From: Thermoanaerobaculia bacterium
Lineage (GTDB): Bacteria; Acidobacteriota; Thermoanaerobaculia; Gp7-AA8
Length of the DNA stretch: 30,210 nt
Assembly: GCA_035525015.1 (NCBI GenBank)
Contig: DATLFC010000038.1
Span: 1-30,210 of the forward strand
Reading direction: 5' to 3'
Within the stretch, counting starts at the first letter, position 1; each line of letters begins with the position of its first letter. Under the pieces are notes generated by a model. The model made no database searches. It was not told the DNA's origin and saw only the letters and a list, made by a program, of their open reading frames with translations. Positions 1,780 to 26,310 of the stretch are shown here, one piece after another. A program made the translations under genes and the position numbers.

Positions 1780-3705
1780 ATGACCAGAAGACTGCTCGAC
1801 AAGATCAATTCCCCGCTCGACCTGCGGAAACTCGACCGCGAACAGCTCCCGCAGGTGGCGGAGGAGATCCGCGAGCTGATCATCGACGTCGTCTCGCGCG
1901 TCGGCGGCCATTTCGGCGGCAACCTCGGCATCGTCGAGCTGACGCTGGCCCTCCACTACGTCTACCAGACGCCGCGCGACCAGATCGTCTTCGACACCGG
2001 GCATCAGAGCTATCCGCACAAGCTGATCACCGGCCGCCGCGACACGTTTCACACCATCCGTCAGCACAACGGGATCTCCGGCTTCTGCAAACGGGAGGAG
2101 TCGGAGTACGACGTCTTCAACGCGGGGCATGCCTCGACCTCGATCTCGGCCGCTCTCGGTGTCGCGGTGGCACGCGACTTCCGGAAAGAGGACTACAACG
2201 TCGTGGCCGTGATCGGCGACGGGGCGCTCTCAGGCGGGCTGGCGCTGGAAGGTCTGAACCAGGCGGGGCATCTGAAGCGGAAGCTGCTGATCGTCCTCAA
2301 CGACAACGACATGTCGATCTCGACGAACGTCGGCGCCATGTCGGGGTATCTGAACTCGATCATCAAAGGGCAGCGCTACAACCAGGCCAAGGATCTGGCC
2401 AAGGGAGTCATGGACCGCATTCCGCTGATCGGCGGCAAGCTCCACGGCCTGGCCTCCGAGGTGGAGGAGGTCCTGAAGCACATGGTCGTCCCCGGCACGC
2501 TGTTCGAGGAGCTGGGCTTCAAATACCTCGGGCCGTTCGACGGACACGACCTCGATCACCTCATCGATCTGTTCGAGGAGCAGAAGGACTACGACGGTCC
2601 GCTCCTCATTCACGTCATCACGAAGAAGGGAAAGGGCTACGTCCCGGCGGAGGACAAACCGATCTGGTCGCACGGGGTAACGCCGTTCGACATTCCGTCC
2701 GGCGACGTGAAGAAGTCGGACAAGCCGGCGCCGCCGACGTACACCGCCGTCTTCTCGGAGACGCTGATCGGGCTGGCAAAGAAAGATCCGAAGATCGTGG
2801 CCATTACCGCGGCGATGCCGGAGGGCACCGGCCTCGACAAGTTCGCGAAGGCACATCCGGGCCGAATGTTCGACGTCGGCATCGCCGAGGAACATGCGGT
2901 GACGTTTTCCGGCGGAATGGCGACGCAGGGGATGAAACCGATCGCGGCGATCTACTCGACGTTCCTGCAGCGGGCCTTCGATCAGGTGTTTCACGACGTC
3001 ACGATCATGGATCTGCCGGTGGTGTTCGCGCTCGATCGCGGCGGCATCGCCGGCGCGGATGGGCCGACGCACCACGGCATCTATGACATGGCCTACCTGC
3101 GGATCTTTCCGAACATGGTCTGCATGGCGCCGAAGGACGAGAACGAGCTGCGGCACATGCTCAAGACCGCGTTCGAGACGGGACATCCGACGTCGCTGCG
3201 CTATCCGCGCGGCAACGGCGTGGGCGTGCCGCTCGATGCGGAGGTCCGTTCGTTACCGGTCGGGAAGGGTGAAGTGATGCGCGAGGGGTCCGCCGGCGCG
3301 ATCTTCGCCATCGGGAACGAAGTCTGGCCGGCCGTCCACGCCGCGGAGGAGCTGGCGAAGGAAGGGATCAAGGTCGCCGTCATCAACGCGCGGTTCATCA
3401 AACCGCTCGACGACGAGCTGATCCGCCGCTACTGCACGCCGGGCGCGCACGTGATCACGGTCGAGGAAGGATCGCTGGCCGGCGGGTTCGGCTCCGCGGT
3501 GATGGAGCGTGTCGTCGAGCTCGGGATCGAAGGGGTGAAGTTCCACCGGATCGGCATCCCCGACGAGTACGTGCACCACGGCACGCAGGACGTGCTGCGC
3601 GCGCAATACGATCTGCACACCGAGGGGATCGCCCGCCGGGTCCGCGAGTTCCTGGCAGGGGAAGCCGGTAACGAGCGTCCGCGCGCCGTGTCATTCCGAG
3701 CGTAG
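1780..3705 (+). CDS. dxs: 1-deoxy-D-xylulose-5-phosphate synthase
   Basis: 641-aa transketolase-like protein with the Dxs N-terminus (LLDKINSPLDLRKL), a TPP-binding motif (GDGALSGG...NDN) and a C-terminal transketolase fold. ATG at 1780, 8 nt after the ispA stop. Confidence 0.95.
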   Translation: MTRRLLDKINSPLDLRKLDREQLPQVAEEIRELIIDVVSRVGGHFGGNLGIVELTLALHYVYQTPRDQIVFDTGHQSYPHKLITGRRDTFHTIRQHNGISGFCKREESEYDVFNAGHASTSISAALGVAVARDFRKEDYNVVAVIGDGALSGGLALEGLNQAGHLKRKLLIVLNDNDMSISTNVGAMSGYLNSIIKGQRYNQAKDLAKGVMDRIPLIGGKLHGLASEVEEVLKHMVVPGTLFEELGFKYLGPFDGHDLDHLIDLFEEQKDYDGPLLIHVITKKGKGYVPAEDKPIWSHGVTPFDIPSGDVKKSDKPAPPTYTAVFSETLIGLAKKDPKIVAITAAMPEGTGLDKFAKAHPGRMFDVGIAEEHAVTFSGGMATQGMKPIAAIYSTFLQRAFDQVFHDVTIMDLPVVFALDRGGIAGADGPTHHGIYDMAYLRIFPNMVCMAPKDENELRHMLKTAFETGHPTSLRYPRGNGVGVPLDAEVRSLPVGKGEVMREGSAGAIFAIGNEVWPAVHAAEELAKEGIKVAVINARFIKPLDDELIRRYCTPGAHVITVEEGSLAGGFGSAVMERVVELGIEGVKFHRIGIPDEYVHHGTQDVLRAQYDLHTEGIARRVREFLAGEAGNERPRAVSFRA

Positions 3706-3764
3706 CGAGGAACCCCCTGACGCAGAAGATCCTTCACCTGCTTCGCGGCTCAGGATGACACGGA
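3688..3764. repeat. REP-like palindromic element, copy A (embeds dxs stop and tlyA start)
   Basis: Left arm GTGTCATTCCGAGCG (contains the dxs TAG). Right arm CGCGGCTCAGGATGACACGG (contains the tlyA ATG). Confidence 0.6.
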
Positions 3765-4495
3765 AAACACGCCTCGACGTCGCTCTCGTCGAGCGCGGCC
3801 TCGTCGAGACGCGCGCGAAGGCGCAGTCGCTGATCATGGCCCGCCGCATCCTCGTCAACGGCGCGTACGTCGACAAGGCCGGCGCGCCGGTCGCCGCGGA
3901 CGACGAGCTGCGCATCGAGCAGCTCGAGCACCCCTGGGTCGGCCGTGGCGGGATGAAGCTCGACCACGCACTGCGCGAGTTCTCCATCGACGTGCGCGGA
4001 CGGGTCTGCGCCGACATCGGCGCCTCGACGGGCGGCTTCACCGACGTGATGCTGAAGAGCGGAGCGCGGAAGGTGTACGCGATCGACGTCGGCTACGGCC
4101 AGATCGACCAGTCCCTGCGCAACGATCCGCGCGTGGTGAACCGCGAAAAGGTGAACGCGCGGTATCTCACCGCCGCCGACTTCGAGGAACCGCTCGAGTT
4201 CGTCTCCATCGATGTCTCGTTCATCTCCCTGAAGCTGATCCTTCCTGCCGTACGCGAGCTCCTCCGCGGCGAGCTCGTGGCATTGATCAAGCCGCAGTTC
4301 GAGGTCGGCAAGCGCGACGTCGGTAAGGGCGGGATCGTCCGCGACGATGCCAGACGCGCCGCGGCGGTGGAAGCTGTCGCCGCCTTTGCGCGGGAGATCG
4401 GCTTCGAGGTGCGCGGCGTGATCGAGAGTCCGGTCAAAGGGGCCGAGGGGAACGTCGAGTATCTGATGTGGGCCGCTTCAGGCCCGCCTGGCTAA
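3755..4495 (+). CDS. tlyA: TlyA-family rRNA 2'-O-methyltransferase (S4 domain plus FtsJ-like methyltransferase)
   Basis: N-terminal S4 RNA-binding region (RLDVALVERGLVETRAKAQSLI) followed by the AdoMet motif DIGASTGGFTDV. Its start codon lies inside the right arm of REP-like element A. It follows dxs as yqxC does in Bacillus. Confidence 0.85.
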   Translation: MTRKTRLDVALVERGLVETRAKAQSLIMARRILVNGAYVDKAGAPVAADDELRIEQLEHPWVGRGGMKLDHALREFSIDVRGRVCADIGASTGGFTDVMLKSGARKVYAIDVGYGQIDQSLRNDPRVVNREKVNARYLTAADFEEPLEFVSIDVSFISLKLILPAVRELLRGELVALIKPQFEVGKRDVGKGGIVRDDARRAAAVEAVAAFAREIGFEVRGVIESPVKGAEGNVEYLMWAASGPPG

Positions 4496-5326
4496 GTAGT
4501 CCTGCAGCCCCTCCCGCCACGACTCCGGCCGCACGCCGGTCAGCCGCTCGTAGCGCTCGGTCGACAGCACCGAATAGGCGGGCCGTTTCGCCGGCCGCGG
4601 AAACTCCGCCGTCGACACCGGCTTCACCTCGGTGATCGCGCCGCTCTCCTCGACGATGGCCTTCGCGAAGTCGAACCAGCTGCACTCCGGCTCGTCGGCA
4701 TAGTGGACCACGCCGCGAGCCTGCGGGTGGCGGGCCAGCCGGATCACCGCCCTCGCCAGGTGCGGCGTGTACGTCGGCCGTCCCCGCTGATCCTCGACCA
4801 CGCGGAGGGGATCCGTCCCCTTCCGGATCTGATTGCGGATCGCTTCGACGAAGTTCGGCCCGTGGATCCCGAACAGCCACGACGTCCGGACGATCAGGTG
4901 CTGCGTTGCGTGTGCTGCAGCGATCTCGCCGAGGAGCTTCGATTGCCCGTAGGCGGAGATCGGTGACGTCGCATCGTTGATCTCGTACGGCGATCGCTTC
5001 GACCCGTCGAAGACGAAATCGGTCGACATCTGGATGAGCAGCGCGCCGGCCTCATTCGCTGCCTCGGCGAGCAGCTCCACGGCGGAGCCGTTGATTTTGT
5101 TCGCGGCGTGCTCGTTCTGTTCGGCATCATCGACCTTCGTGTACCCCGCGCAGTTGACGATGACGTTCGCCCCCGTCTCCTCTACGGCCGCGGCGACCGT
5201 GCGGCTGTCGGTGATGTCCAGCTCCGCATGGGTGAGGGAACGGAAATCGAGATCCTGCGACAGAAGCTCGTCGCGCAGGTCGACGCCGAACATGCCGCCG
5301 CCGCCGGTGATCAGCCAGCGGCTCAT
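4478..5326 (-). CDS. rfbD: dTDP-4-dehydrorhamnose reductase
   Basis: 282-aa protein with a Rossmann N-terminus (WLITGGGGMFG) and RmlD-like core (NCAGYTKVD...STDFVFDG). Its 3' end overlaps the tlyA 3' end by 18 nt (convergent). Confidence 0.85.
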   Translation of the reverse strand: MSRWLITGGGGMFGVDLRDELLSQDLDFRSLTHAELDITDSRTVAAAVEETGANVIVNCAGYTKVDDAEQNEHAANKINGSAVELLAEAANEAGALLIQMSTDFVFDGSKRSPYEINDATSPISAYGQSKLLGEIAAAHATQHLIVRTSWLFGIHGPNFVEAIRNQIRKGTDPLRVVEDQRGRPTYTPHLARAVIRLARHPQARGVVHYADEPECSWFDFAKAIVEESGAITEVKPVSTAEFPRPAKRPAYSVLSTERYERLTGVRPESWREGLQDYLARRA

Positions 5327-6105
5327 CGGCGCGGCGGACCGCCGCGCGGGTTCACCTGGACACGCACGCCATGGCTCGCCTTCCCAGCGATGAGATTCAT
5401 GACCATGAATGCATAGAGGAGGCGCGCGTTCACTCCGGCCGACAGCGGCGGCGTGTTGACCACATCGGCCAGTGAGCGCCGGCCGTCGACGCGATGGAGC
5501 AGATTCCTCTCATCCTCGTCGAGCACGAGCTCCGGCACCTCGTCATTCGTGCGGCTGATGACCGTGGAGCGCGTTCCGACGCGCGCGAGCAGCTCCTTCG
5601 CGTCGGGCATGTGCCGGACGCCTTCGATGATGGCCTGCGGGATCGGTATGTCGAGCTTGACGAATTCGCGGTGGCGATCGCGTCCCGGAACGAACGAGAC
5701 TTTGCCGCCGTCCCACGAAAACACGGACCAGACGATCTCCTGGATCTGCTCCCGAACCGCTTCCAGCATCCGCTCCGGCTCGAGCACGCGCATCTCGGTC
5801 AGGATCGTCCCCTGCCGTTTGTCCGTCGCCAGGAGACGGCGGACGCTCTCGTCGTACTGCTCCCGGGTGATCAATCCCTCGTTGAGCAGCCGGTCGCCGA
5901 GGGAGTCGCGGACCTGGTTCGAGGTGCCGAAGACGATGTGGCCGCGGTCGAGGAAGATCTCCTTCCGCTCGTTGCCGCGGTGGCAGTCGATCGTCCCTGG
6001 AGCCTTGTGCCGGTAGATGGTGACCAGGATCTCCGGAAGCGAAGTCTGGGTGAGATCGGTTTCGTAGACGGGACGTGGGGCGGCCGGGTCGCTCGGCGGG
6101 GTCAT
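5323..6105 (-). CDS. DUF4388-domain protein (N-terminal DUF4388-like segment; C-terminal half unassigned)
   Basis: The N-terminal segment (DLTQTSLPEILVTIYRHKAPGTIDC...IFLDRGHIVF) matches my recollection of the DUF4388 fold. The ATG at 6103-6105 is preferred over the in-frame TTG at 6111. There is a 4-nt ATGA overlap with rfbD and the gene starts 9 nt after the tatA stop. Confidence 0.55.
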   Translation of the reverse strand: MTPPSDPAAPRPVYETDLTQTSLPEILVTIYRHKAPGTIDCHRGNERKEIFLDRGHIVFGTSNQVRDSLGDRLLNEGLITREQYDESVRRLLATDKRQGTILTEMRVLEPERMLEAVREQIQEIVWSVFSWDGGKVSFVPGRDRHREFVKLDIPIPQAIIEGVRHMPDAKELLARVGTRSTVISRTNDEVPELVLDEDERNLLHRVDGRRSLADVVNTPPLSAGVNARLLYAFMVMNLIAGKASHGVRVQVNPRGGPPRR

Positions 6106-6113
6106 CCGCAAAC

Positions 6114-6326
6114 TCAGGCGTCGAGGCCTTGCGTCTTCTTCTCGTCGACGGCCTTGTCACCTTTGTTGGCCTTGGTGAGCCCGTCACGGAAGTTCGAGAT
6201 GCCCTCGCCGAGGCCCTTGCCGAGCTGCGGCAGACGGGAGGCGCCGAAGATCACCACGACGATGACCAGAATGACGAGAAGCTCAGCCATTCCGAGCCCC
6301 CCTATGAAAAGCATGTGTCCAGACAT
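6114..6326 (-). CDS. tatA: twin-arginine translocase subunit TatA/E
   Basis: 70-aa protein with one N-terminal TM helix (GGLGMAELLVILVIVVVIFG), then an amphipathic helix (LPQLGKGLGEGISNFRDGL) and a charged tail. A GGGAGG Shine-Dalgarno sits 4 nt upstream of the ATG. Confidence 0.8.
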   Translation of the reverse strand: MSGHMLFIGGLGMAELLVILVIVVVIFGASRLPQLGKGLGEGISNFRDGLTKANKGDKAVDEKKTQGLDA

Positions 6327-6353
6327 GAAGCCTCCCGTGGGTAGAACAGACTA

Positions 6354-6420
6354 TCTTGAATGTCATTCCGAGCGCCACCTCCCGCCCAGATTCCTCGCTG
6401 CGCTCGGAATGACTAAGATT
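6354..6420. repeat. REP-like palindromic element, copy B (divergent tatA/uvrD intergenic)
   Basis: Perfect 14-bp inverted repeat GTCATTCCGAGCGC / GCGCTCGGAATGAC with flanking extension, separated by about 24 nt. Confidence 0.65.
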
Positions 6421-6431
6421 CGGCCCCTGAC

Positions 6432-8705
6432 ATGATCGACCTCACAGGATTGAATAACCAGCAGAGAAAGGCTGTGACGCATGGCACCGGTCCCCTGCTC
6501 GTTCTGGCGGGCGCCGGGTCTGGGAAGACCCGGGTCATCACCTACCGGATCGCCTGGCTGATCGGGGAGGGGGGGGTCGCGCCGGCGCGAATTCTGGCCG
6601 TGACCTTCACGAACAAGGCCGCCAGCGAGATGCTGAGCCGGGTGGAGCACCTGGTTCCGCACATCGGGGCCCGTCCCTGGATCGGGACGTTCCACGCGAC
6701 GTCGCTTCGGATGCTGCGGCGCTACGCCGACCGTCTGGGGTACACGAAGTCGTTCGTGGTCTACGACACGGCCGATCAGCTGACGCTGATCCGGCGCTGC
6801 ATGCGCGAGCTGAACGTGAACGACGAGGCGTACCCTCCGCGGGCCGTGCTGACGCGCATCTCGCATGCGAAGAACGAGCTCATCGGGCCGGAGGAGTACG
6901 AGCGGACGAATCTCGACTTCTTCGGCGCGCGCGTGGCGGAGATCTACCGGATGTACCAGAAGCGGCTGCGCGAGTTCGACGCCATGGACTTCGATGACCT
7001 GATCGGCAGGTACGTCGAGCTGCTGGAAAAGAACGAGGACATCCGCGGCGAGTTGCACGAGCGTTTTCAGCACCTGCTCATCGACGAATACCAGGACACG
7101 AATCGCGCGCAGTACGTGCTGATCAAGCTTCTGGCGGGGCCGGAGGGGAATGTGATGGCGGTCGGTGACGAGGACCAGTCCATCTACAGGTTCCGCGGCG
7201 CCGACATCAACAACATCCTGAACTTCGAGAAGGATTTTCCGGGCGCCGAGATCATCAAGCTCGAGCAGAACTATCGCTCGACGGGCAACATCCTCGACGC
7301 CGCCACGGGAGTCGTCGCCAACAACATCGCCCGGAAAGGCAAACGGCTCTACACGGAGTCGGGAAGCGGCGACCCGGTGCGCATCGTGACCTGCAGCAAC
7401 GAGCGGGAAGAGGCGCAGTTCGTCATCGAGAAGATCACCGCGCAGCGTTCACGGATGAAGCTCTCCGACTTCGCGGTGCTCTTCCGGACCAACGCGCAGT
7501 CGCGGCCCTTCGAAGAAGAGCTTCTCCGCGCCAACATCCCCTACACGGTCGTCGGCGGCGTGAAGTTCTACGAGCGGGCCGAGATCAAGGACGTTCTCTC
7601 CTATCTGCGGCTGGCCATCCGGCCGCACGACACGCCGTCGATCGAGCGCGTCATCAACGCCCCCTCGCGTGGCATCGGTGACACGACCGTCAGCGCGCTC
7701 AGCGACGCGGCGACCCAGCAGAACGTGTCGCTCTGGACGGTGATCGAAGGGGATCTGGCTTTTCTGCCGACGCGGGCCTCCAAAGCGGTGCGCGAGTTTC
7801 GCGAGATCGTGCACGATCTGCAGCGCGCCGCCGCCAATCCGCTGCCGGAGCTCCTCGATTACCTGCTCCTCCGCACCGGCTATCGCCGCATGCTGAGTGA
7901 ATCGCGCGACATCCAGGATGAATCGAGGCTGGAGAACATCGACGAGCTCCTCAACTCCGCGCGGGAGTTCGCCGAGCAGAACACCTCCGCGAGCGTGTCC
8001 GACTACCTCGACTCCCTGACGCTCATGTCGGACCTCGACCGCTACGAGTCGCAGAAGGGCGTCACGCTGATGACGCTCCACTCGGCCAAGGGACTGGAGT
8101 TCAAGGTCGTGTTTCTGGCCGGCATGGATGAGGGCATCCTCCCGCACTCGAGCTCGCTCGAGCACCAGGAGGATCTCGAGGAGGAGCGGCGCCTCTGTTA
8201 CGTGGGGATGACGCGGGCTCGGGAGCAGCTCTACTGCATCCATTCGCGCGAGCGGCGGCTGCACGGGAGGTTCCGGGAGCAGTCGCCGTCGCCGTTCCTC
8301 AGCGAGATTCCGGAGGAGGTGAAGGAGGAGGTGGGGATGCGGCGCGCCTCGTGGGCTCCTTCGCGGCCGGCGCGCCCCTCACCCGGCGCGAAGCCCGCCC
8401 TGAGCGGAGCCGAAGGGCGCCACCCTCTCCCCGCTGCGCGGGGCGAGGGGACGGCGGCGGCGGTGGCTTCGTTTTTCGAGGGGTCGGCGGTGCAGTTCGA
8501 TCCCTCGGCGATCCGGCCGGCGGCGAAGAGCGACACGTCGCGGCCCGATCTGAAGCGGGGGCAGCGCGTCCGGCACGAGATGTTCGGCGACGGCACGATT
8601 CTGACAATGGAGGGATCGGGGCCCGACGCGAAGCTGACCGTCTATTTCGAGCGCGCCGGGTCGAAGAAGTTCATCGCCAAATACGCCAAGCTGACCAGGA
8701 TCTGA
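6432..8705 (+). CDS. uvrD: ATP-dependent DNA helicase PcrA/UvrD with an Ala/Pro-rich linker and a C-terminal Tudor-like domain
   Basis: Walker A (LVLAGAGSGKTRVIT) and SF1 helicase motifs (DEYQDTN, LEQNYRST, VTLMTLHSAKGLEF). The low-complexity linker and KRGQRVRHEMFGDGTIL... tail are typical of the PcrA C-terminal domain. Confidence 0.9.
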   Translation: MIDLTGLNNQQRKAVTHGTGPLLVLAGAGSGKTRVITYRIAWLIGEGGVAPARILAVTFTNKAASEMLSRVEHLVPHIGARPWIGTFHATSLRMLRRYADRLGYTKSFVVYDTADQLTLIRRCMRELNVNDEAYPPRAVLTRISHAKNELIGPEEYERTNLDFFGARVAEIYRMYQKRLREFDAMDFDDLIGRYVELLEKNEDIRGELHERFQHLLIDEYQDTNRAQYVLIKLLAGPEGNVMAVGDEDQSIYRFRGADINNILNFEKDFPGAEIIKLEQNYRSTGNILDAATGVVANNIARKGKRLYTESGSGDPVRIVTCSNEREEAQFVIEKITAQRSRMKLSDFAVLFRTNAQSRPFEEELLRANIPYTVVGGVKFYERAEIKDVLSYLRLAIRPHDTPSIERVINAPSRGIGDTTVSALSDAATQQNVSLWTVIEGDLAFLPTRASKAVREFREIVHDLQRAAANPLPELLDYLLLRTGYRRMLSESRDIQDESRLENIDELLNSAREFAEQNTSASVSDYLDSLTLMSDLDRYESQKGVTLMTLHSAKGLEFKVVFLAGMDEGILPHSSSLEHQEDLEEERRLCYVGMTRAREQLYCIHSRERRLHGRFREQSPSPFLSEIPEEVKEEVGMRRASWAPSRPARPSPGAKPALSGAEGRHPLPAARGEGTAAAVASFFEGSAVQFDPSAIRPAAKSDTSRPDLKRGQRVRHEMFGDGTILTMEGSGPDAKLTVYFERAGSKKFIAKYAKLTRI

Positions 8706-8846
8706 GAGATGGTGAAAAAGAGGATCGTCGATAACCGGAACCGCCCCGCCCAGCCCGAGCCGGGGCAGGATCCGGCCGTGAAGAAAGTGCCGGTGCGCAA
8801 ACAGGGGACCAGGCCCACGCCGAAGCGGAAGATGACGAGGGAAAAA

Positions 8847-8930
8847 GTGTCATCCTGAGCGCCGCAGAGCGCGAAGGATCTCCCACCCGCAGGGGGTCCT
8901 TCGCCGTCTTCGCGGCTCAGGATGACACGG
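8847..8930. repeat. REP-like palindromic element, copy C (between convergent uvrD-side and TPR gene ends)
   Basis: Arms GTGTCATCCTGAGCGCCGCAGAGCGCGAAGGA ... TCCTTCGCCGTCTTCGCGGCTCAGGATGACACGG form a long imperfect hairpin. Confidence 0.6.
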
Positions 8931-8934
8931 TGGG

Positions 8935-10794
8935 TCACTTGCCGCTGGTGGCGGCGCGGCGGCGCTTGGCGTGCAGCCGGTCGATGAGCTTCGTCGCGGA
9001 GCGGACCTGTTCGAGGATCTTCTCTTCCAGACCGGCGCCCTTGATCTTGAAGCTCTTGGCGCGGCGGAAGACGGCGCGGGCGCGGTCCTTCTCGCCGCTC
9101 TCCAGCAGGGCCATGCCGAGGTGCATCAGGTTCGTGGCCGTGGGACCGATGTCGGCGGACTTCGACAGGAAGTCGACGGCGGCCTGGAAGTCACGGCGCT
9201 TGAAGTAAACCCAACCCAGCGCCGCCAGGGGGAACTGCTTCAGCTCCTTCGGTGAGTAGCGCAGCGCGAGCTGCGCGCTCTCCAGCGCCTCGTCTAGGCT
9301 CTCTTCCATCTCGGCGAGGTTGTACGCCTTCTCGTAGTAGGCGATCGACTTCGCGTAGTTCGATGTGTACTCGCGCAGCATCTCTTCCAGCGCGCGATTC
9401 GCGTCCTTGAAGTTCCCCTCGGCGCGCAGCGCCTCGACCAGCGTCGTGTACGCCGCCGCCGCGACGACCTCCGTCGGCCTCTCACGCAGGATCTGCCTCG
9501 ATACGGCGATGGCCTCGCTGTTCAGATCGAGGTGCGAGCAGAGCAGCGCGTACGGCATCAGGATGTTGACGTTGTCGGGGTATTCGTGCGAGGCCCGGCG
9601 GTAGTGATCGAGGGCCTCGCTGTAATTGCCCTGATTGACCAGCGTCTCCGCCTCGCTCAGCTCTGTCGCCGCCGGTCCCTCGATCGGGACGTGGCCGGAG
9701 ATTCCCTCGTAGATCTTGACGGCCTGCTGGTACTCCATCTTGTTCGGATTCAGCTCCAGTGCTTCCTGGAAGCACTCGATGGCCTTCCGGTTCCAGTTGC
9801 GGTCGAGATAGCAGAGGCCGAGGTGATAGATCGCCTCCTCGTAGTCGGGATCGAGTTTCAGCGCGCTCTGGAACGAACGGATGGAGCGCTCGAGCTGCCC
9901 CTTCTCGTAGAAGATCGTGCCGAGAAGGAAGAAGGCCTGCGGGATGGCCTCGAGCTGGATGGCCTTCTCGAGGAACTTCTGCGCGCGAAGGAGCTTGCCT
10001 TTCCGGGCGTAGATCGCACCGAGAGAGAAGTAGGGGAGGAACGACTCCTGCGAGATCTGGATGGCGCGCCGCAGCCAGCGCTCGGCCCCCTTCAGATCCT
10101 GCCGCTCGTGCAGGAGGACGCCGTAGAAAACGGCGGCGTCGAAGTGATCGGGCTGCACCTCCAGCGTCCGCTCGAGGTAGTACTTGGCGCGATCGAGATT
10201 GCCGTCGTTGAAGAACGTCTCGCCCAGGAAGAAGGAGAGCTCGTAGTTGTCGCGGTCGAGGCGGAACGCTTCTTCGAGAGCCTTCAGGCCGCGGTCGGGA
10301 TCGAAGGCGTCGATGGCCGCTTCCGCTTCCACGACCAGGCCCACGAAGCGGTCGCGCTTGTCGCCTCGGAAGAGCGACATGATGCGGTCGCGCCGTTCGG
10401 TGAAGCGCTGCTTCTTCTCCAGCGCGAGCATCTGCTCGCCCATCTTCGCTTCCCACAGCTCCACCACTTCCTCGCCGGAGAGGAGGTTCTTTTTCTCCAG
10501 GAGCTCCTTCACGGAGAGCAGGCCTGTCTGGTTGATGAAGATGGCCCGCTCGTGCTTCTGCACGGCGTCGACGACGGAGCGGAGCGTTTCGGCGGAGCGC
10601 TTGACGATCTCCTCGAGCGCGGAGACGCGCTCGAGCAGGTGCTCGTCGAGCGAAAGGTCGCCTTCCTCTTCGTACTCTTCGACCTCGTCCTCTTCGAACG
10701 AGGTCAGTCCCGACAGAACGAGAAGCTTGTTCTGACAGCGGAAGCAGTACTCCTTATCGTCTTCGTTGAACGCGCTACAGGTCTGGCAGAGCAT
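8935..10794 (-). CDS. TPR-repeat protein with N-terminal zinc-ribbon (CxxC-x10-CxxC) and acidic coiled-coil segment
   Basis: Preferred start is the ATG at 10792-10794 (MLCQTCSAFNEDDKEYCFRCQN). The 61-codon upstream extension in the ORF track is non-globular and overlaps hbd. More than 10 TPR-like repeats follow (AFFLLGTIFYEKGQLERSIRSFQSALKLDPDY and similar). Confidence 0.7.
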   Translation of the reverse strand: MLCQTCSAFNEDDKEYCFRCQNKLLVLSGLTSFEEDEVEEYEEEGDLSLDEHLLERVSALEEIVKRSAETLRSVVDAVQKHERAIFINQTGLLSVKELLEKKNLLSGEEVVELWEAKMGEQMLALEKKQRFTERRDRIMSLFRGDKRDRFVGLVVEAEAAIDAFDPDRGLKALEEAFRLDRDNYELSFFLGETFFNDGNLDRAKYYLERTLEVQPDHFDAAVFYGVLLHERQDLKGAERWLRRAIQISQESFLPYFSLGAIYARKGKLLRAQKFLEKAIQLEAIPQAFFLLGTIFYEKGQLERSIRSFQSALKLDPDYEEAIYHLGLCYLDRNWNRKAIECFQEALELNPNKMEYQQAVKIYEGISGHVPIEGPAATELSEAETLVNQGNYSEALDHYRRASHEYPDNVNILMPYALLCSHLDLNSEAIAVSRQILRERPTEVVAAAAYTTLVEALRAEGNFKDANRALEEMLREYTSNYAKSIAYYEKAYNLAEMEESLDEALESAQLALRYSPKELKQFPLAALGWVYFKRRDFQAAVDFLSKSADIGPTATNLMHLGMALLESGEKDRARAVFRRAKSFKIKGAGLEEKILEQVRSATKLIDRLHAKRRRAATSGK

Positions 10795-10844
10795 GGTTTG
10801 GTGCGGATTAGAACATGGGTTGGCGACGACTTCATCCCTCGATG

Positions 10845-11687
10845 TCAGTAACGGTAAAACCCGCGTCCACTCTTCCGGCCCAGCCACCCCGCATCGACCA
10901 TCTTCACCAGCAGCGGACACGGCCGGTACTTCGGGTCGCCGAACCCTTCCTCGAGCACGCGGAGTATGGCCAGGCATACATCGAGGCCGATGAAGTCGGC
11001 GAGCGTGAGCGGACCCATCGGGTGGTTCATGCCGAGTTTCATCACGCCGTCGATCGCTTCCGGCGTCGCCACCCCTTCGTAGAGCGTGAAGATCGCCTCG
11101 TTGATCATCGGCATCAGGACGCGGTTGGAGATGAAGCCGGGATAGTCGTTCACTTCGATCGGCGTCTTCCCCATCTTCTTCGACAGGTCCTCGACGCGCA
11201 TCCAGGTCTCATCCGTGGTGGCGATGCCGCGGATCACCTCGACGAGCGCCATCACCGGCACCGGATTCATGAAGTGCATGCCGATGACCTTGTCGGGACG
11301 CTTCGTCGCGGCGGCGATCTTCGTGATCGAGATCGATGACGTGTTCGAGGCCAGGATGCACTCGGGGCGGGTGATCGTGTCGAGCGTGCCGAACAGCTCC
11401 GTCTTGGCGGCGAGGTTCTCGATGATCGCTTCGATCACGATGTCGGCGCCGGCGGCGGCCTGCAGGTCGGTGGCCGTCCGGATGCGGCCGAGGACCGCTT
11501 CCTTTTCCGCCGCCTGCATCTTTCCCTTGTCGACGCCGCGCTGGAGGTTGGACGAGATCGTCTTCATGGCCCGGTCGAGGATGTCGCGCGAGATGTCGAT
11601 GAGCATCACCTCGAAACCGCTCCCGGCGGCCGTGTGGGCGATGCCGTTGCCCATCGTCCCGCCGCCGATAACAACGATGTTTTTCAT
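10845..11687 (-). CDS. hbd: 3-hydroxybutyryl-CoA / 3-hydroxyacyl-CoA dehydrogenase
   Basis: NAD-binding N-terminus (IVVIGGGTMGNGIAHT) and HCDH family core (TNTSSISIT...GFISNRVLMPMINEA). An AGGAGA Shine-Dalgarno sits 8 nt upstream of the ATG. Confidence 0.9.
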   Translation of the reverse strand: MKNIVVIGGGTMGNGIAHTAAGSGFEVMLIDISRDILDRAMKTISSNLQRGVDKGKMQAAEKEAVLGRIRTATDLQAAAGADIVIEAIIENLAAKTELFGTLDTITRPECILASNTSSISITKIAAATKRPDKVIGMHFMNPVPVMALVEVIRGIATTDETWMRVEDLSKKMGKTPIEVNDYPGFISNRVLMPMINEAIFTLYEGVATPEAIDGVMKLGMNHPMGPLTLADFIGLDVCLAILRVLEEGFGDPKYRPCPLLVKMVDAGWLGRKSGRGFYRY

Positions 11688-25637: not shown

Positions 25638-25651
25638 CTGTCTCACTCAGA

Positions 25652-26002
25652 TCAGGATGACACCGGAGCGGTCGGCGAGACAACCGTCGAGCCATGCTTG
25701 GCGACCTCTTCCTCCATTCGCCCGGCCATCATCAGAAACAGCATCCGGTAGTCGGCGGCCAGGGAGTAGAAGGGGTGCCCGAACGTGGCCGGCTTGTTGT
25801 GCTCGACGAAGAAGTGCGCGTACCAGGCGAAGCTGTACCCGACCAGCGGCGCGGCCACGAGGAACCAGAGATTCACCGCGAACGCCAGCCCGATCATGAT
25901 CACCGCCAGCACCGAGCCGACCGCGTGCAGCATCCGCGTCCGCGGCCGGGAATGCTGGCGGACGTAGTGCGGCCAGAAGTCTCTGAACGTACGGATCTCC
26001 AT
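25652..26002 (-). CDS. DUF962 (Mpo1-like) membrane protein
   Basis: RTFRDFWPHYVRQH...FAWYAHFFVEHNKPATFGHPFYSLAADYRM matches the DUF962/Mpo1-like family. The ATG at 26000-26002 is preferred over the TTG at 26047. Confidence 0.65.
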   Translation of the reverse strand: MEIRTFRDFWPHYVRQHSRPRTRMLHAVGSVLAVIMIGLAFAVNLWFLVAAPLVGYSFAWYAHFFVEHNKPATFGHPFYSLAADYRMLFLMMAGRMEEEVAKHGSTVVSPTAPVSS

Positions 26003-26067
26003 GGACTGGACGGTCGCGATTCTCCCATACAGGCCGTGGCACTTCAATTGCTGCCGCTGGAGACGGT

Positions 26068-26310
26068 ATGGCGCAGGATTTCGAACAGCTTCTGAAGGAT
26101 ATTTTCGGCGAGCCGCTCGCGCGGCTGAACCAGTTCCAGTCCGACAAGATGCATCAGCTCCAGGCGAAGCTCAGGGAAATCGCACACGAGGCCGTCAAAG
26201 ACGAGCTGAACCGCCTGCATTCCGAAATTGGTGAGCTCCGGACCCGCCTGACTCGGCTGGAAGAGGAGCGGGCCCAGGCCGCGGCGGACAGCGTGGAAAC
26301 GTCGTTCTAG
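26068..26310 (+). CDS. small coiled-coil protein (80 aa), hypothetical
   Basis: A GGAG Shine-Dalgarno sits 5 nt upstream of the ATG. The sequence is heptad-rich (LQAKLREIAHEAVKDELNRLHSEIGELRTRLTRLEEE). GC content is lower than the surroundings. Its stop lies inside a 9-bp hairpin. Confidence 0.55.
   Translation: MAQDFEQLLKDIFGEPLARLNQFQSDKMHQLQAKLREIAHEAVKDELNRLHSEIGELRTRLTRLEEERAQAAADSVETSF

Follow-up and report, generated by a model that had tools for sequence, protein, structure and literature searches.

Head-to-head hairpin repeats at gene boundaries of a Thermoanaerobaculia contig are probably Ssn-related motifs of the CGTC-tagged REP class

Introduction

The described systems that come closest to the repeat reported here are the repetitive extragenic palindromes (REPs) that carry a CGTC tag and the Ssn-related motifs (SRMs), hairpins that flank the gene of a small nuclease in many bacteria. 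Our subject is a palindromic repeat that occurs in three copies, at or close to gene ends, in a 30,210-bp contig from a metagenome-assembled genome (MAG) of Thermoanaerobaculia (Acidobacteriota); the whole contig was analysed and is referred to as the window. A sequence-only reading of this DNA had described a dispersed family that repeatedly donates start and stop codons, and had suggested either a mobile element resembling REPs or miniature inverted-repeat transposable elements (MITEs), with a REP-associated tyrosine transposase (RAYT) as the partner to be looked for, or a conserved RNA structure or operator. Our analysis points to another partner: with a probability of about 0.7, each copy is a head-to-head dimer of an SRM, of the same class as the TGTC/CGTC-tagged REP superfamily.

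The CGTC-tagged superfamily was described by Di Nocera, De Gregorio and Rocco in 2013 (PMC3733652) with the families CGTC-1 to CGTC-4, and includes Neisseria dRS3 and Rickettsia RPE-4 and RPE-6. In these REPs the CGTC tag (often TGTC, or CCTC) is unpaired, the first two stem positions are A-T and the hairpin spans about 21 nt; the four families have fully paired stems of 8-9 bp, loops of 4-5 nt and a CCA-like tail, and were reported from five phyla (PMC3733652). They are mainly head-to-head dimers, often heterodimers, that abut or overlap the ends of open reading frames (ORFs), some of them lying inside ORFs, and the authors had already noted that REP ends supply stop codons (PMC3733652). No RAYT or IS200 gene was found to be flanked by them, and no dedicated transposase is associated with them (PMC3733652).

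The link to an enzyme comes from Chenal et al. 2025, Nat Commun (PMC11893778), who showed that the NTS hairpin (CGTCATTCCCGCGMAVGCGGGAATCYRG), the longer form of dRS3, and related SRM hairpins flank ssnA in many bacteria. The ssnA product is a single-domain GIY-YIG protein of about 94-95 aa (CDD cd10448), which binds a single strand of the motif, and only in the form of single-stranded DNA (ssDNA), cuts it a few nucleotides before the tag, on the 5' side, and binds neither RNA nor double-stranded DNA; the homologues tested in vitro are those of Neisseria (with NTS) and Wolbachia only (PMC11893778). According to the same authors, the NTS-ssnA-NTS arrangement resembles an insertion sequence (IS), and SRMs were searched with the pattern HGTCWYN(0-2)YYVSBRHN(0-5)WNVSBRGN(0-2)RNCYNB, built from 29 genomes (PMC11893778).

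Results

Three inverted pairs in the window

The window holds three palindromic copies, A (3687-3762), B (6362-6416) and C (8846-8929). Their core, GTCATYCYGAGCG, occurs six times with at most one mismatch, and these occurrences form three inverted pairs (3690/3747, 6362/6401 and 8849/8914). At two mismatches the count is no better than in shuffled sequence (10 found vs 7.1 expected), so the inverted pairs at 0-1 mismatch were taken as the repeat signal; a 13-mer resembling the motif at 6286-6298, two mismatches away and within the tatA coding sequence, was treated as chance. A covariance model built solely from half-sites of the window's repeat family (hereafter R1) found five significant arms in the window, with E-values from 1e-9 to 1e-4 (Table 1), which bears out the three copies with shared arms seen in the sequence-only reading. 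All five arms fit the same directional motif, an unpaired GTC tag, a stem that begins with A-T and a 3' tail, and in every dimer of the window the GTC tags point outward.

Copy A lies across the dxs-tlyA junction and partly overlaps ORF ends. Copy B lies within the 105-nt divergent tatA/uvrD spacer and copy C within the convergent uvrD/TPR spacer, where its right end stops 4 nt before the TPR-gene stop (8935-8937), as had been noted; both are wholly intergenic. Copy B had also been called a perfect 14-bp palindrome, which is correct for its outer stem (6362-6375 / 6400-6413), but its left arm is a fragment without the inner half of the half-site and not a full half-site. Folded whole, the copies form long hairpins of -25 to -59 kcal/mol (z -4.1 to -8.3), and no shuffled sequence folded equally well.

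A further half-site had been placed at 25652-25663 and was said to contain the stop codon of a DUF962 gene. This did not hold: R1 gives the site E=0.39, the stop codon (25647-25649) lies outside the 12-mer, and the ORF concerned (25647-26147) has no Pfam match. The sequence at 25645-25664 is possibly a remnant, in which the tag and the stem feet are present and the hairpin interior is gone.

A covarying hairpin within each arm

A one-genome-per-species scan for paired arms returned at least 120 loci, from which about 330 half-sites (332) were gathered. The half-site is about 26 nt long and has the consensus (T/C)GTC-A-T-Y-C-Y-G-A-G-C-G-N-A-G-C-G-A-R-G-R-A-T-C-T. In a position matrix of 213 canonical half-sites, position 0 is T or C, GTCAT is invariant and the 3' end reads A (205), T (183), C (207) and T (170), whereas the loop base N at position 14 is free (A 59, C 94, G 28, T 32) and the sequence beyond the final T is random. 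The YGTC tag is unpaired and lies 5' of a hairpin that consists of five Watson-Crick pairs (ATYCY/RGRAT), tandem G.A/A.G, two G-C pairs and a GNA triloop, with a CT tail on the 3' side. Variants with a longer centre keep this frame with other inner stems, GCGC/GCGC in the left arm of copy C and GCCG/CGGC in its right arm. Nearest-neighbour DNA folding gives the proposed arm hairpin as the minimum free energy (MFE) structure.

In 223 of 231 half-sites the bases at positions 6/22 and 8/20 form covarying Watson-Crick pairs, in the combinations CT/AG (88), CC/GG (64), TT/AA (36) and TC/GA (35); there are eight exceptions. When 96 sequences were aligned, pair 9-25 was CG in 63, UA in 30 and UG in 3, pair 11-23 was CG in 48 and UA in 45, and each pair had 0-3 unpaired cells; 94.8% of cells were paired, compared with 12-55% when the partner was slid, and the covariation score was reached by none of 500 shuffles. 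The long palindrome described in the sequence-only reading does not behave in this way. The arms of 54 of 130 head-to-head dimers are of different subtype, so that a long stem there would carry C.A or G.T mispairs, yet pairing within the arm is kept in 81 of 87 parsed arms. For this reason we rejected the long inter-arm hairpin as the conserved structure; as judged from these alignments, the functional and conserved unit is the hairpin within each arm.

Every canonical arm is centred on GCGNAGC with N free. According to a review of work by Hirao and colleagues (PMC13037366), the DNA motif GCGNAGC forms a compact mini-hairpin of extraordinary stability. The d(GCGNAGC) mini-hairpin is a biophysical motif rather than a genetic element, and the likeness here is one of sequence only; the folding software has no model for it. 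The motif may be relevant to the arms.

Distribution and insertion behaviour

The element is present in at least 15 phyla among the matches listed: Chloroflexota, Planctomycetota, Gemmatimonadota, Bacteroidota, Pseudomonadota (alpha, beta and gamma), Armatimonadota, Bacillota, Cyanobacteriota, Acidobacteriota, Verrucomicrobiota (including Kiritimatiellia), Bdellovibrionota, Actinomycetota, Elusimicrobiota, Nitrospinota and Myxococcota. These matches are mostly soil and sediment MAGs and include the isolates Luteimonas marina and Sphingobacterium tenebrionis. Some 8-kb loci carry three or four copies, and the half-site is nearly identical in sequence across the 15 phyla. Matches in viral contigs are rare (nine matching stretches), and BLAST of a plasmid collection with the consensus dimer gave no match.

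Target-site duplications did not exceed expectation at lengths of 2-6 and three offsets, and the palindrome reaches only 1-2 nt past the GTC. All-vs-all clustering of the ORFs around the copies gave no recurrent neighbour protein, and a motif scan of 875 kb around the approximately 330 half-sites gave no HUH-motif ORF. Rfam returned no match in the window at E<=1, and for 18 element loci of diverse phyla at the gathering threshold it returned an FMN riboswitch and tRNA only, neither on the element. Literature searches with exact 13-16-mer strings and with the encoded peptides produced nothing relevant.

Copy B is absent from the orthologous tatA/uvrD spacers of relatives, and copy C from their spacers 3' of uvrD. 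The nearest relatives (82-86% TlyA identity) keep the synteny, but they are too distant for their spacers to be aligned, which precludes an exact empty-site comparison. Given this presence and absence, the breadth across phyla, the dimers of REPIN type and the lack of target-site duplication, the earlier proposal of a dispersed REP/MITE-like family was right in kind.

In four relatives (L121-L124) dxs and tlyA are separated by a PIN gene, and the element is missing from this junction. This PIN-domain gene (L121:9603-10004 and its equivalents in L122-L124) overlaps both neighbours by 1-4 nt and is absent from the window and from locus L125, and its presence and absence make the junction a hotspot of gain and loss. 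The dxs-tlyA spacer of L125 measures 431 nt and is bounded by degenerate arms (CTCATTCTGAGCC ... GGCTCAGAGTGAC). This spacer (L125:9560-10000) contains in addition copies of another palindromic repeat, rich in G+C (CCCTCT.CCCGC.GCGGGGAGAGGG-like); at least two repeat families have thus settled at the junction. Where the window has copy B, the tatA-uvrD spacer of L125 (12712-12931) has a long palindrome of AGTACTGAGTGCTGAGT-type units, which belong to another repeat family.

Tandem repetition of arm ends was seen in one locus (L076:1-100 and 1914-2003), where the outer 12-14 nt of the arm with 5-6 nt of flank are repeated three or four times beside a dimer, as CGGCAT followed by GTCATCCCGAGC three times and as GCGCTCGGAATGAC plus 5 nt four times. 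The unit begins about where an SsnA-type cleavage would fall, and these tandem units could be the footprint of repeated cutting and repair, or of slippage.

Hairpins beside ssn genes

A consensus Ssn-like sequence was used as the query and retrieved GIY-YIG proteins of about 95 aa with up to 84% identity; an alignment of 36 retrieved Ssn proteins then yielded 80 metagenomic ssn loci. A tag-outward hairpin was present within 100 nt of ssn upstream in 36/76 loci, downstream in 48/75 and on both sides in 27/71. These counts, made with a strict hairpin finder that required the exact complement of three stem bases, are lower bounds. The commonest ssn flank, GTCATTGC-GAGCGAAGCGA-A-GCAATCT, has the window's core with another stem triplet. 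Hairpins of the YCY subtype, to which the arms of the window belong, stand on either side of ssn in L177, L181, L191 and L206 and in a Chloroflexota/Dehalococcoidia clade (L216-L226), of which L226 carries TTGTCATTCTGAGCGAAGCGAAGAATCT. R1 matches the YCY flanks of ssn at E 1e-9 to 3e-4, and the bracketed proteins match Pfam GIY-YIG (E=5e-16 and 2e-14), their class being assigned here by Pfam. These observations of ssn flanked by this repeat family come from other organisms.

Across the ssn loci L136-L215, the triplet after GTCAT is TGC in about 180 of 220 hairpins, the others being TCT, TCC, CGC, CCT and CCC, and the GA-GC-GNA-GC-GA core is kept. Many ssn proteins are on contigs of less than 2 kb, as expected if assemblies break at repeats. 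In L216-L227 the position of ssn is conserved, with a PHO4 phosphate transporter gene on one side and, on the other, an ORF that matches Terminase_6C weakly; here ssn looks like a resident, vertically kept copy beside possible prophage remains. A Burkholderiales MAG has a frameshifted ssn pseudogene between sucC and sucD (L078:1760-2110) flanked by NTS hairpins (GTCATTCCCGCGCAAGCGGGAATC); window-type dimers are found 4 kb from it, which places two SRM subtypes in one genome.

Comparison with described families

With the SRMs, including NTS/dRS3, the repeat shares the unpaired 5' (C/T)GTC tag, the AT-first stem, the 3' ...ATCY tail, the form of a short directional hairpin of about 25-30 nt and the occurrence of hundreds of dispersed, mostly intergenic copies. 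Inverted pairs of SRMs bracket the gene for a GIY-YIG protein of about 95 aa, and the YCY subtype does likewise in other organisms. The directional tag with hairpin and the conserved pairing are both found in the repeat, which differs in that its stem is broken by tandem G.A and closed by GC-GNA-GC, whereas the NTS stem is continuous (ATTCCCGCG...CGCGGGAAT). Because the G.A pairs break the YYVSB/VSBRG stem requirement, the published SRM pattern fails on the half-sites. That pattern is an operational search tool and not a biological definition, and the repeat is best regarded as an SRM-type variant outside it.

The tag, the AT-first stem and the head-to-head dimers of the CGTC REP superfamily are likewise present. 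The repeat's 5+2 Watson-Crick pairs, two G.A, triloop and CT tail fit the plan of the superfamily but none of the families CGTC-1 to CGTC-4, and its peptides (VILSEAKDL, SFRA) are absent from the lists published for the superfamily.

Stop and start codons within the element

As the sequence-only reading had observed, the left arm of copy A carries the dxs stop and its right arm the tlyA start. The stop TAG (3703-3705) takes its T from loop N, its A from the loop and its G from the first base of the 3' inner stem; the ATG (3755-3757) lies within ...GGCTCAGGATGACACGG and is the ATG of ...CTCAGGATGACACGG. This ATG is the first start codon of the tlyA ORF, and no usable downstream start precedes the S4 domain, which begins at residue 6. 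Eight relatives (78-86% identity) start MK(K/S)...RLDVAL, whereas the TlyA of the window starts MTRKTRLDVAL, so that the codons ATG ACA CGG are element sequence.

The donation of codons proposed earlier is therefore true of copy A, and it recurs elsewhere: in L121 a radical-SAM gene terminates on an arm TGA, and in L125 an arm ATG provides the called start of an alanine racemase. Of 132 dimers, 32 contain the stop of an open frame of 150 codons or more, and in 22 an arm ATG opens such a frame; both counts were made without gene calls and are upper bounds, high-GC genomes being rich in spurious ORFs. TGA is present in the arms in every case as part of GGATGAC, and also as part of CCTGAGC if position 8 is T; ATG is found as well, and sometimes TAG. 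Since the elements settle in tight spacers, a supply of codons is to be expected of them. Most simply, the stops and starts are a by-product of arm content and position and not the purpose of the element.

In three database proteins (P0166, P0154, P0212) and an ORF of L043, the N-terminal extensions are translated hairpins (CHCERSEAIS, RHCEGGTTEAI, LLAMT, SFRAKRGI), which means that the repeats contaminate protein annotations.

Features of the window

The genes around the three copies and the individual half-sites are collected in Table 1. The fabI gene is called from GTG 25646, right beside the upstream stop; a start at the in-frame ATG 25636 would yield the typical N-terminus MPLLEGR..., and the true spacer before fabI is probably 10 nt.

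Table 1. Genes near the repeat copies and half-sites of the repeat in the window
Feature	Position	Strand	Evidence or remark
dxs (DXP synthase)	1780-3705	+	ORF listing and domain search
tlyA	3755-4495	+	S4 and FtsJ domains
rmlD-like	4478-5326	-	ORF/domain calls
DUF4388/PatA_N	5323-6111	-	ORF/domain calls
tatA	6114-6326	-	ORF/domain calls
uvrD	6432-8705	+	ORF/domain calls
TPR protein	8935-10977	-	stop 8935-8937
Copy A, left half-site	3687-3719	+	R1 41.1 bits, E=9e-9; TGTC tag and hairpin ATTCC-GA-GC-GTA-GC-GA-GGAAC
Copy A, right half-site	3723-3762	-	R1 25.1 bits, E=1.2e-4; inner hairpin enlarged, partly degenerate
Copy B, left outer-arm 14-nt fragment GTCATTCCGAGCGC	6362-6375	+	R1 9 bits, E=1.6
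Copy B, right half-site, complete canonical, AGTCATTCCGAGCGCAGCGAGGAATCT	6384-6416	-	R1 44.5 bits, E=1.2e-9, best in window
Copy C, left half-site, longer inner hairpin GA-GCGC-CGCAGA-GCGC-GA	8846-8885	+	R1 37 bits, E=1e-7; DNA-fold MFE
Copy C, right half-site, longer inner hairpin GA-GCCG-CGAAGA-CGGC-GA	8890-8929	-	R1 29.4 bits, E=9e-6
Possible remnant GGTGTCATCCTGATCT, 3' end of ORF 25647-26147	25645-25664	-	R1 11.4 bits, E=0.39, not significant

Discussion

The reading that we favour is that each copy in the window is a head-to-head dimer of an SRM. In ssDNA the half-site is predicted to fold as a short hairpin with the YGTC tag unpaired and a CT tail, and by analogy with the tested relatives a cognate SsnA would bind one strand of this hairpin and cut it a few nucleotides before the tag, on the 5' side. 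The arrangement around ssn genes is SRM> ssn <SRM. Since the window copies have this geometry with the gene missing, we read them as ssn-less, MITE-like derivatives or relics, which a cognate Ssn, with its gene in another part of the genome, probably spread or still maintains. Binding and cleavage by Ssn in this organism, and the mobility of the element, would then proceed as in the homologous systems. As the arms carry TGA, ATG and sometimes TAG and the copies lie in short spacers, neighbouring ORFs end or begin inside them.

Several points weigh against this reading. None of the 332 half-sites matches the published SRM search pattern, which has no match in the window either. For single arms the thermodynamic z-scores fall short of significance, and for this reason the support for the arm hairpin is comparative and not thermodynamic. 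tblastn with 120 Ssn proteins found no ssn in the window, leaving the partner in this genome unseen, and in 120 element-centred loci tblastn found ssn only as the Burkholderiales pseudogene with its NTS-type flanks; a motif regex also found no GIY-YIG ORF near the copies in these loci. The ssn genes with YCY flanks belong to other phyla, for the most part Chloroflexota, and L216-L227 represent one syntenic lineage. Transposition by Ssn is undemonstrated, as is any biological role outside Neisseria (PMC11893778), and a mechanism that cuts a single strand at each hairpin, with the two cuts on opposite strands, does not readily suggest itself as a chemistry of transposition. The association with ssn is visible from the ssn side only, which is what a low-copy enzyme gene with many orphan sites would give.

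Other explanations fare less well against the same evidence. If the repeat were primarily an RNA element, its long hairpin would act as an mRNA stabiliser or terminator, and at copy A a ribosome at TAG 3703 would melt the stem that sequesters ATG 3755 and so couple tlyA to dxs. The long hairpins are indeed very stable as RNA (-35 to -59 kcal/mol, with the z-scores given above), the stop and start of copy A do lie in opposite arms, and REPs in general are mostly downstream of ORFs and often transcribed (PMC3733652). We nevertheless consider an RNA function improbable as the explanation of the family, as conservation follows the intra-arm hairpin even where the arm subtypes of a dimer are mismatched, and the copies occupy uni-directional, divergent and convergent spacers, which leaves no consistent transcript orientation. 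Moreover, no T-run follows the stems of copies A-C, no Rfam family matches, and SsnA does not bind RNA (PMC11893778). A local RNA-coupling effect at copy A may exist as a by-product.

More improbable still is that the copies are REPINs mobilised by a RAYT, a Y1/HUH transposase of IS200/IS605 type with a single gene at another place in the genome. The copies do resemble the REPIN and REP-BIME systems of Pseudomonas and Enterobacteria: two inverted short hairpins form a larger one, a tetranucleotide tag lies 5', the dispersed copies are intergenic and have no target-site duplication, REP ends can give stops, and non-autonomous copies rely on a single-copy enzyme that acts on ssDNA and whose gene is flanked by the repeat. 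However, the tag is YGTC and not GTAG (or, more generally, GT[AG]G), no RAYT or IS200 gene is flanked by REPs of the CGTC type (PMC3733652), no HUH-motif ORF lies near the half-sites, and the gene that the hairpins do bracket is ssn, whose product has the GIY-YIG and not the HUH/Y1 fold. REPINs are also confined to particular lineages and passed on vertically, whereas this half-site hardly varies from phylum to phylum. A classical MITE with terminal inverted repeats, moved by a DDE transposase, would account for a short dispersed palindrome with presence/absence polymorphism, but we give it very little credence, in that no target-site duplication appeared at any offset or length examined, the arms are internally structured, covarying hairpins, and no recurrent transposase lies near the copies. 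Chance similarity or conserved coding sequence can practically be set aside: although the 13-mer is at chance level with two mismatches and copy A partly overlaps ORF ends, the six 0-1 mismatch matches fall into three inverted pairs, R1 reaches E-values down to 1e-9, the identical element recurs in unrelated contexts at more than 120 loci, and copies B and C lie wholly between genes.

Both the class and the enzyme have been described before (2013, 2025), and the SRM dimers of the window are not a new kind of system; the novelty lies in the non-Watson-Crick hairpin of this subfamily, in the breadth of the subfamily and in the failure of the published search pattern to cover it. A bolder reading, which we regard as possible but doubtful, is that the hairpin with the G.A/GNA core (the YCY subtype of the window and the TGC subtype, which is found beside most of the ssn genes sampled) is the dominant pan-bacterial Ssn target, missed by the published pattern, that SRM> ssn <SRM units form an IS-like class whose genuine mobility depends on a GIY-YIG ssDNA nuclease, and that ssn-less dimers routinely rewrite gene ends. 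If this were true, copy A would supply the stop of the essential dxs and the only start of tlyA, possibly coupling their translation.

The assignment to the SRMs would link the Ssn ssDNA nucleases with a so far anonymous repeat that seems to be dense at some loci of environmental MAGs. The repeat is often translated into spurious peptides, for example VILSEAKDL or SFRAKRGI. In annotation, ORF ends and short ORFs that fall within such elements should be viewed with caution, and at the dxs-tlyA locus the assignment flags a tlyA with no start codon other than that of the repeat. For work on Ssn the repeat offers concrete substrates, and it raises the question of whether the covarying YCY/RGR triplet is a specificity code; the variation of the stem triplet around a constant core suggests that the triplet may match each hairpin to its Ssn.

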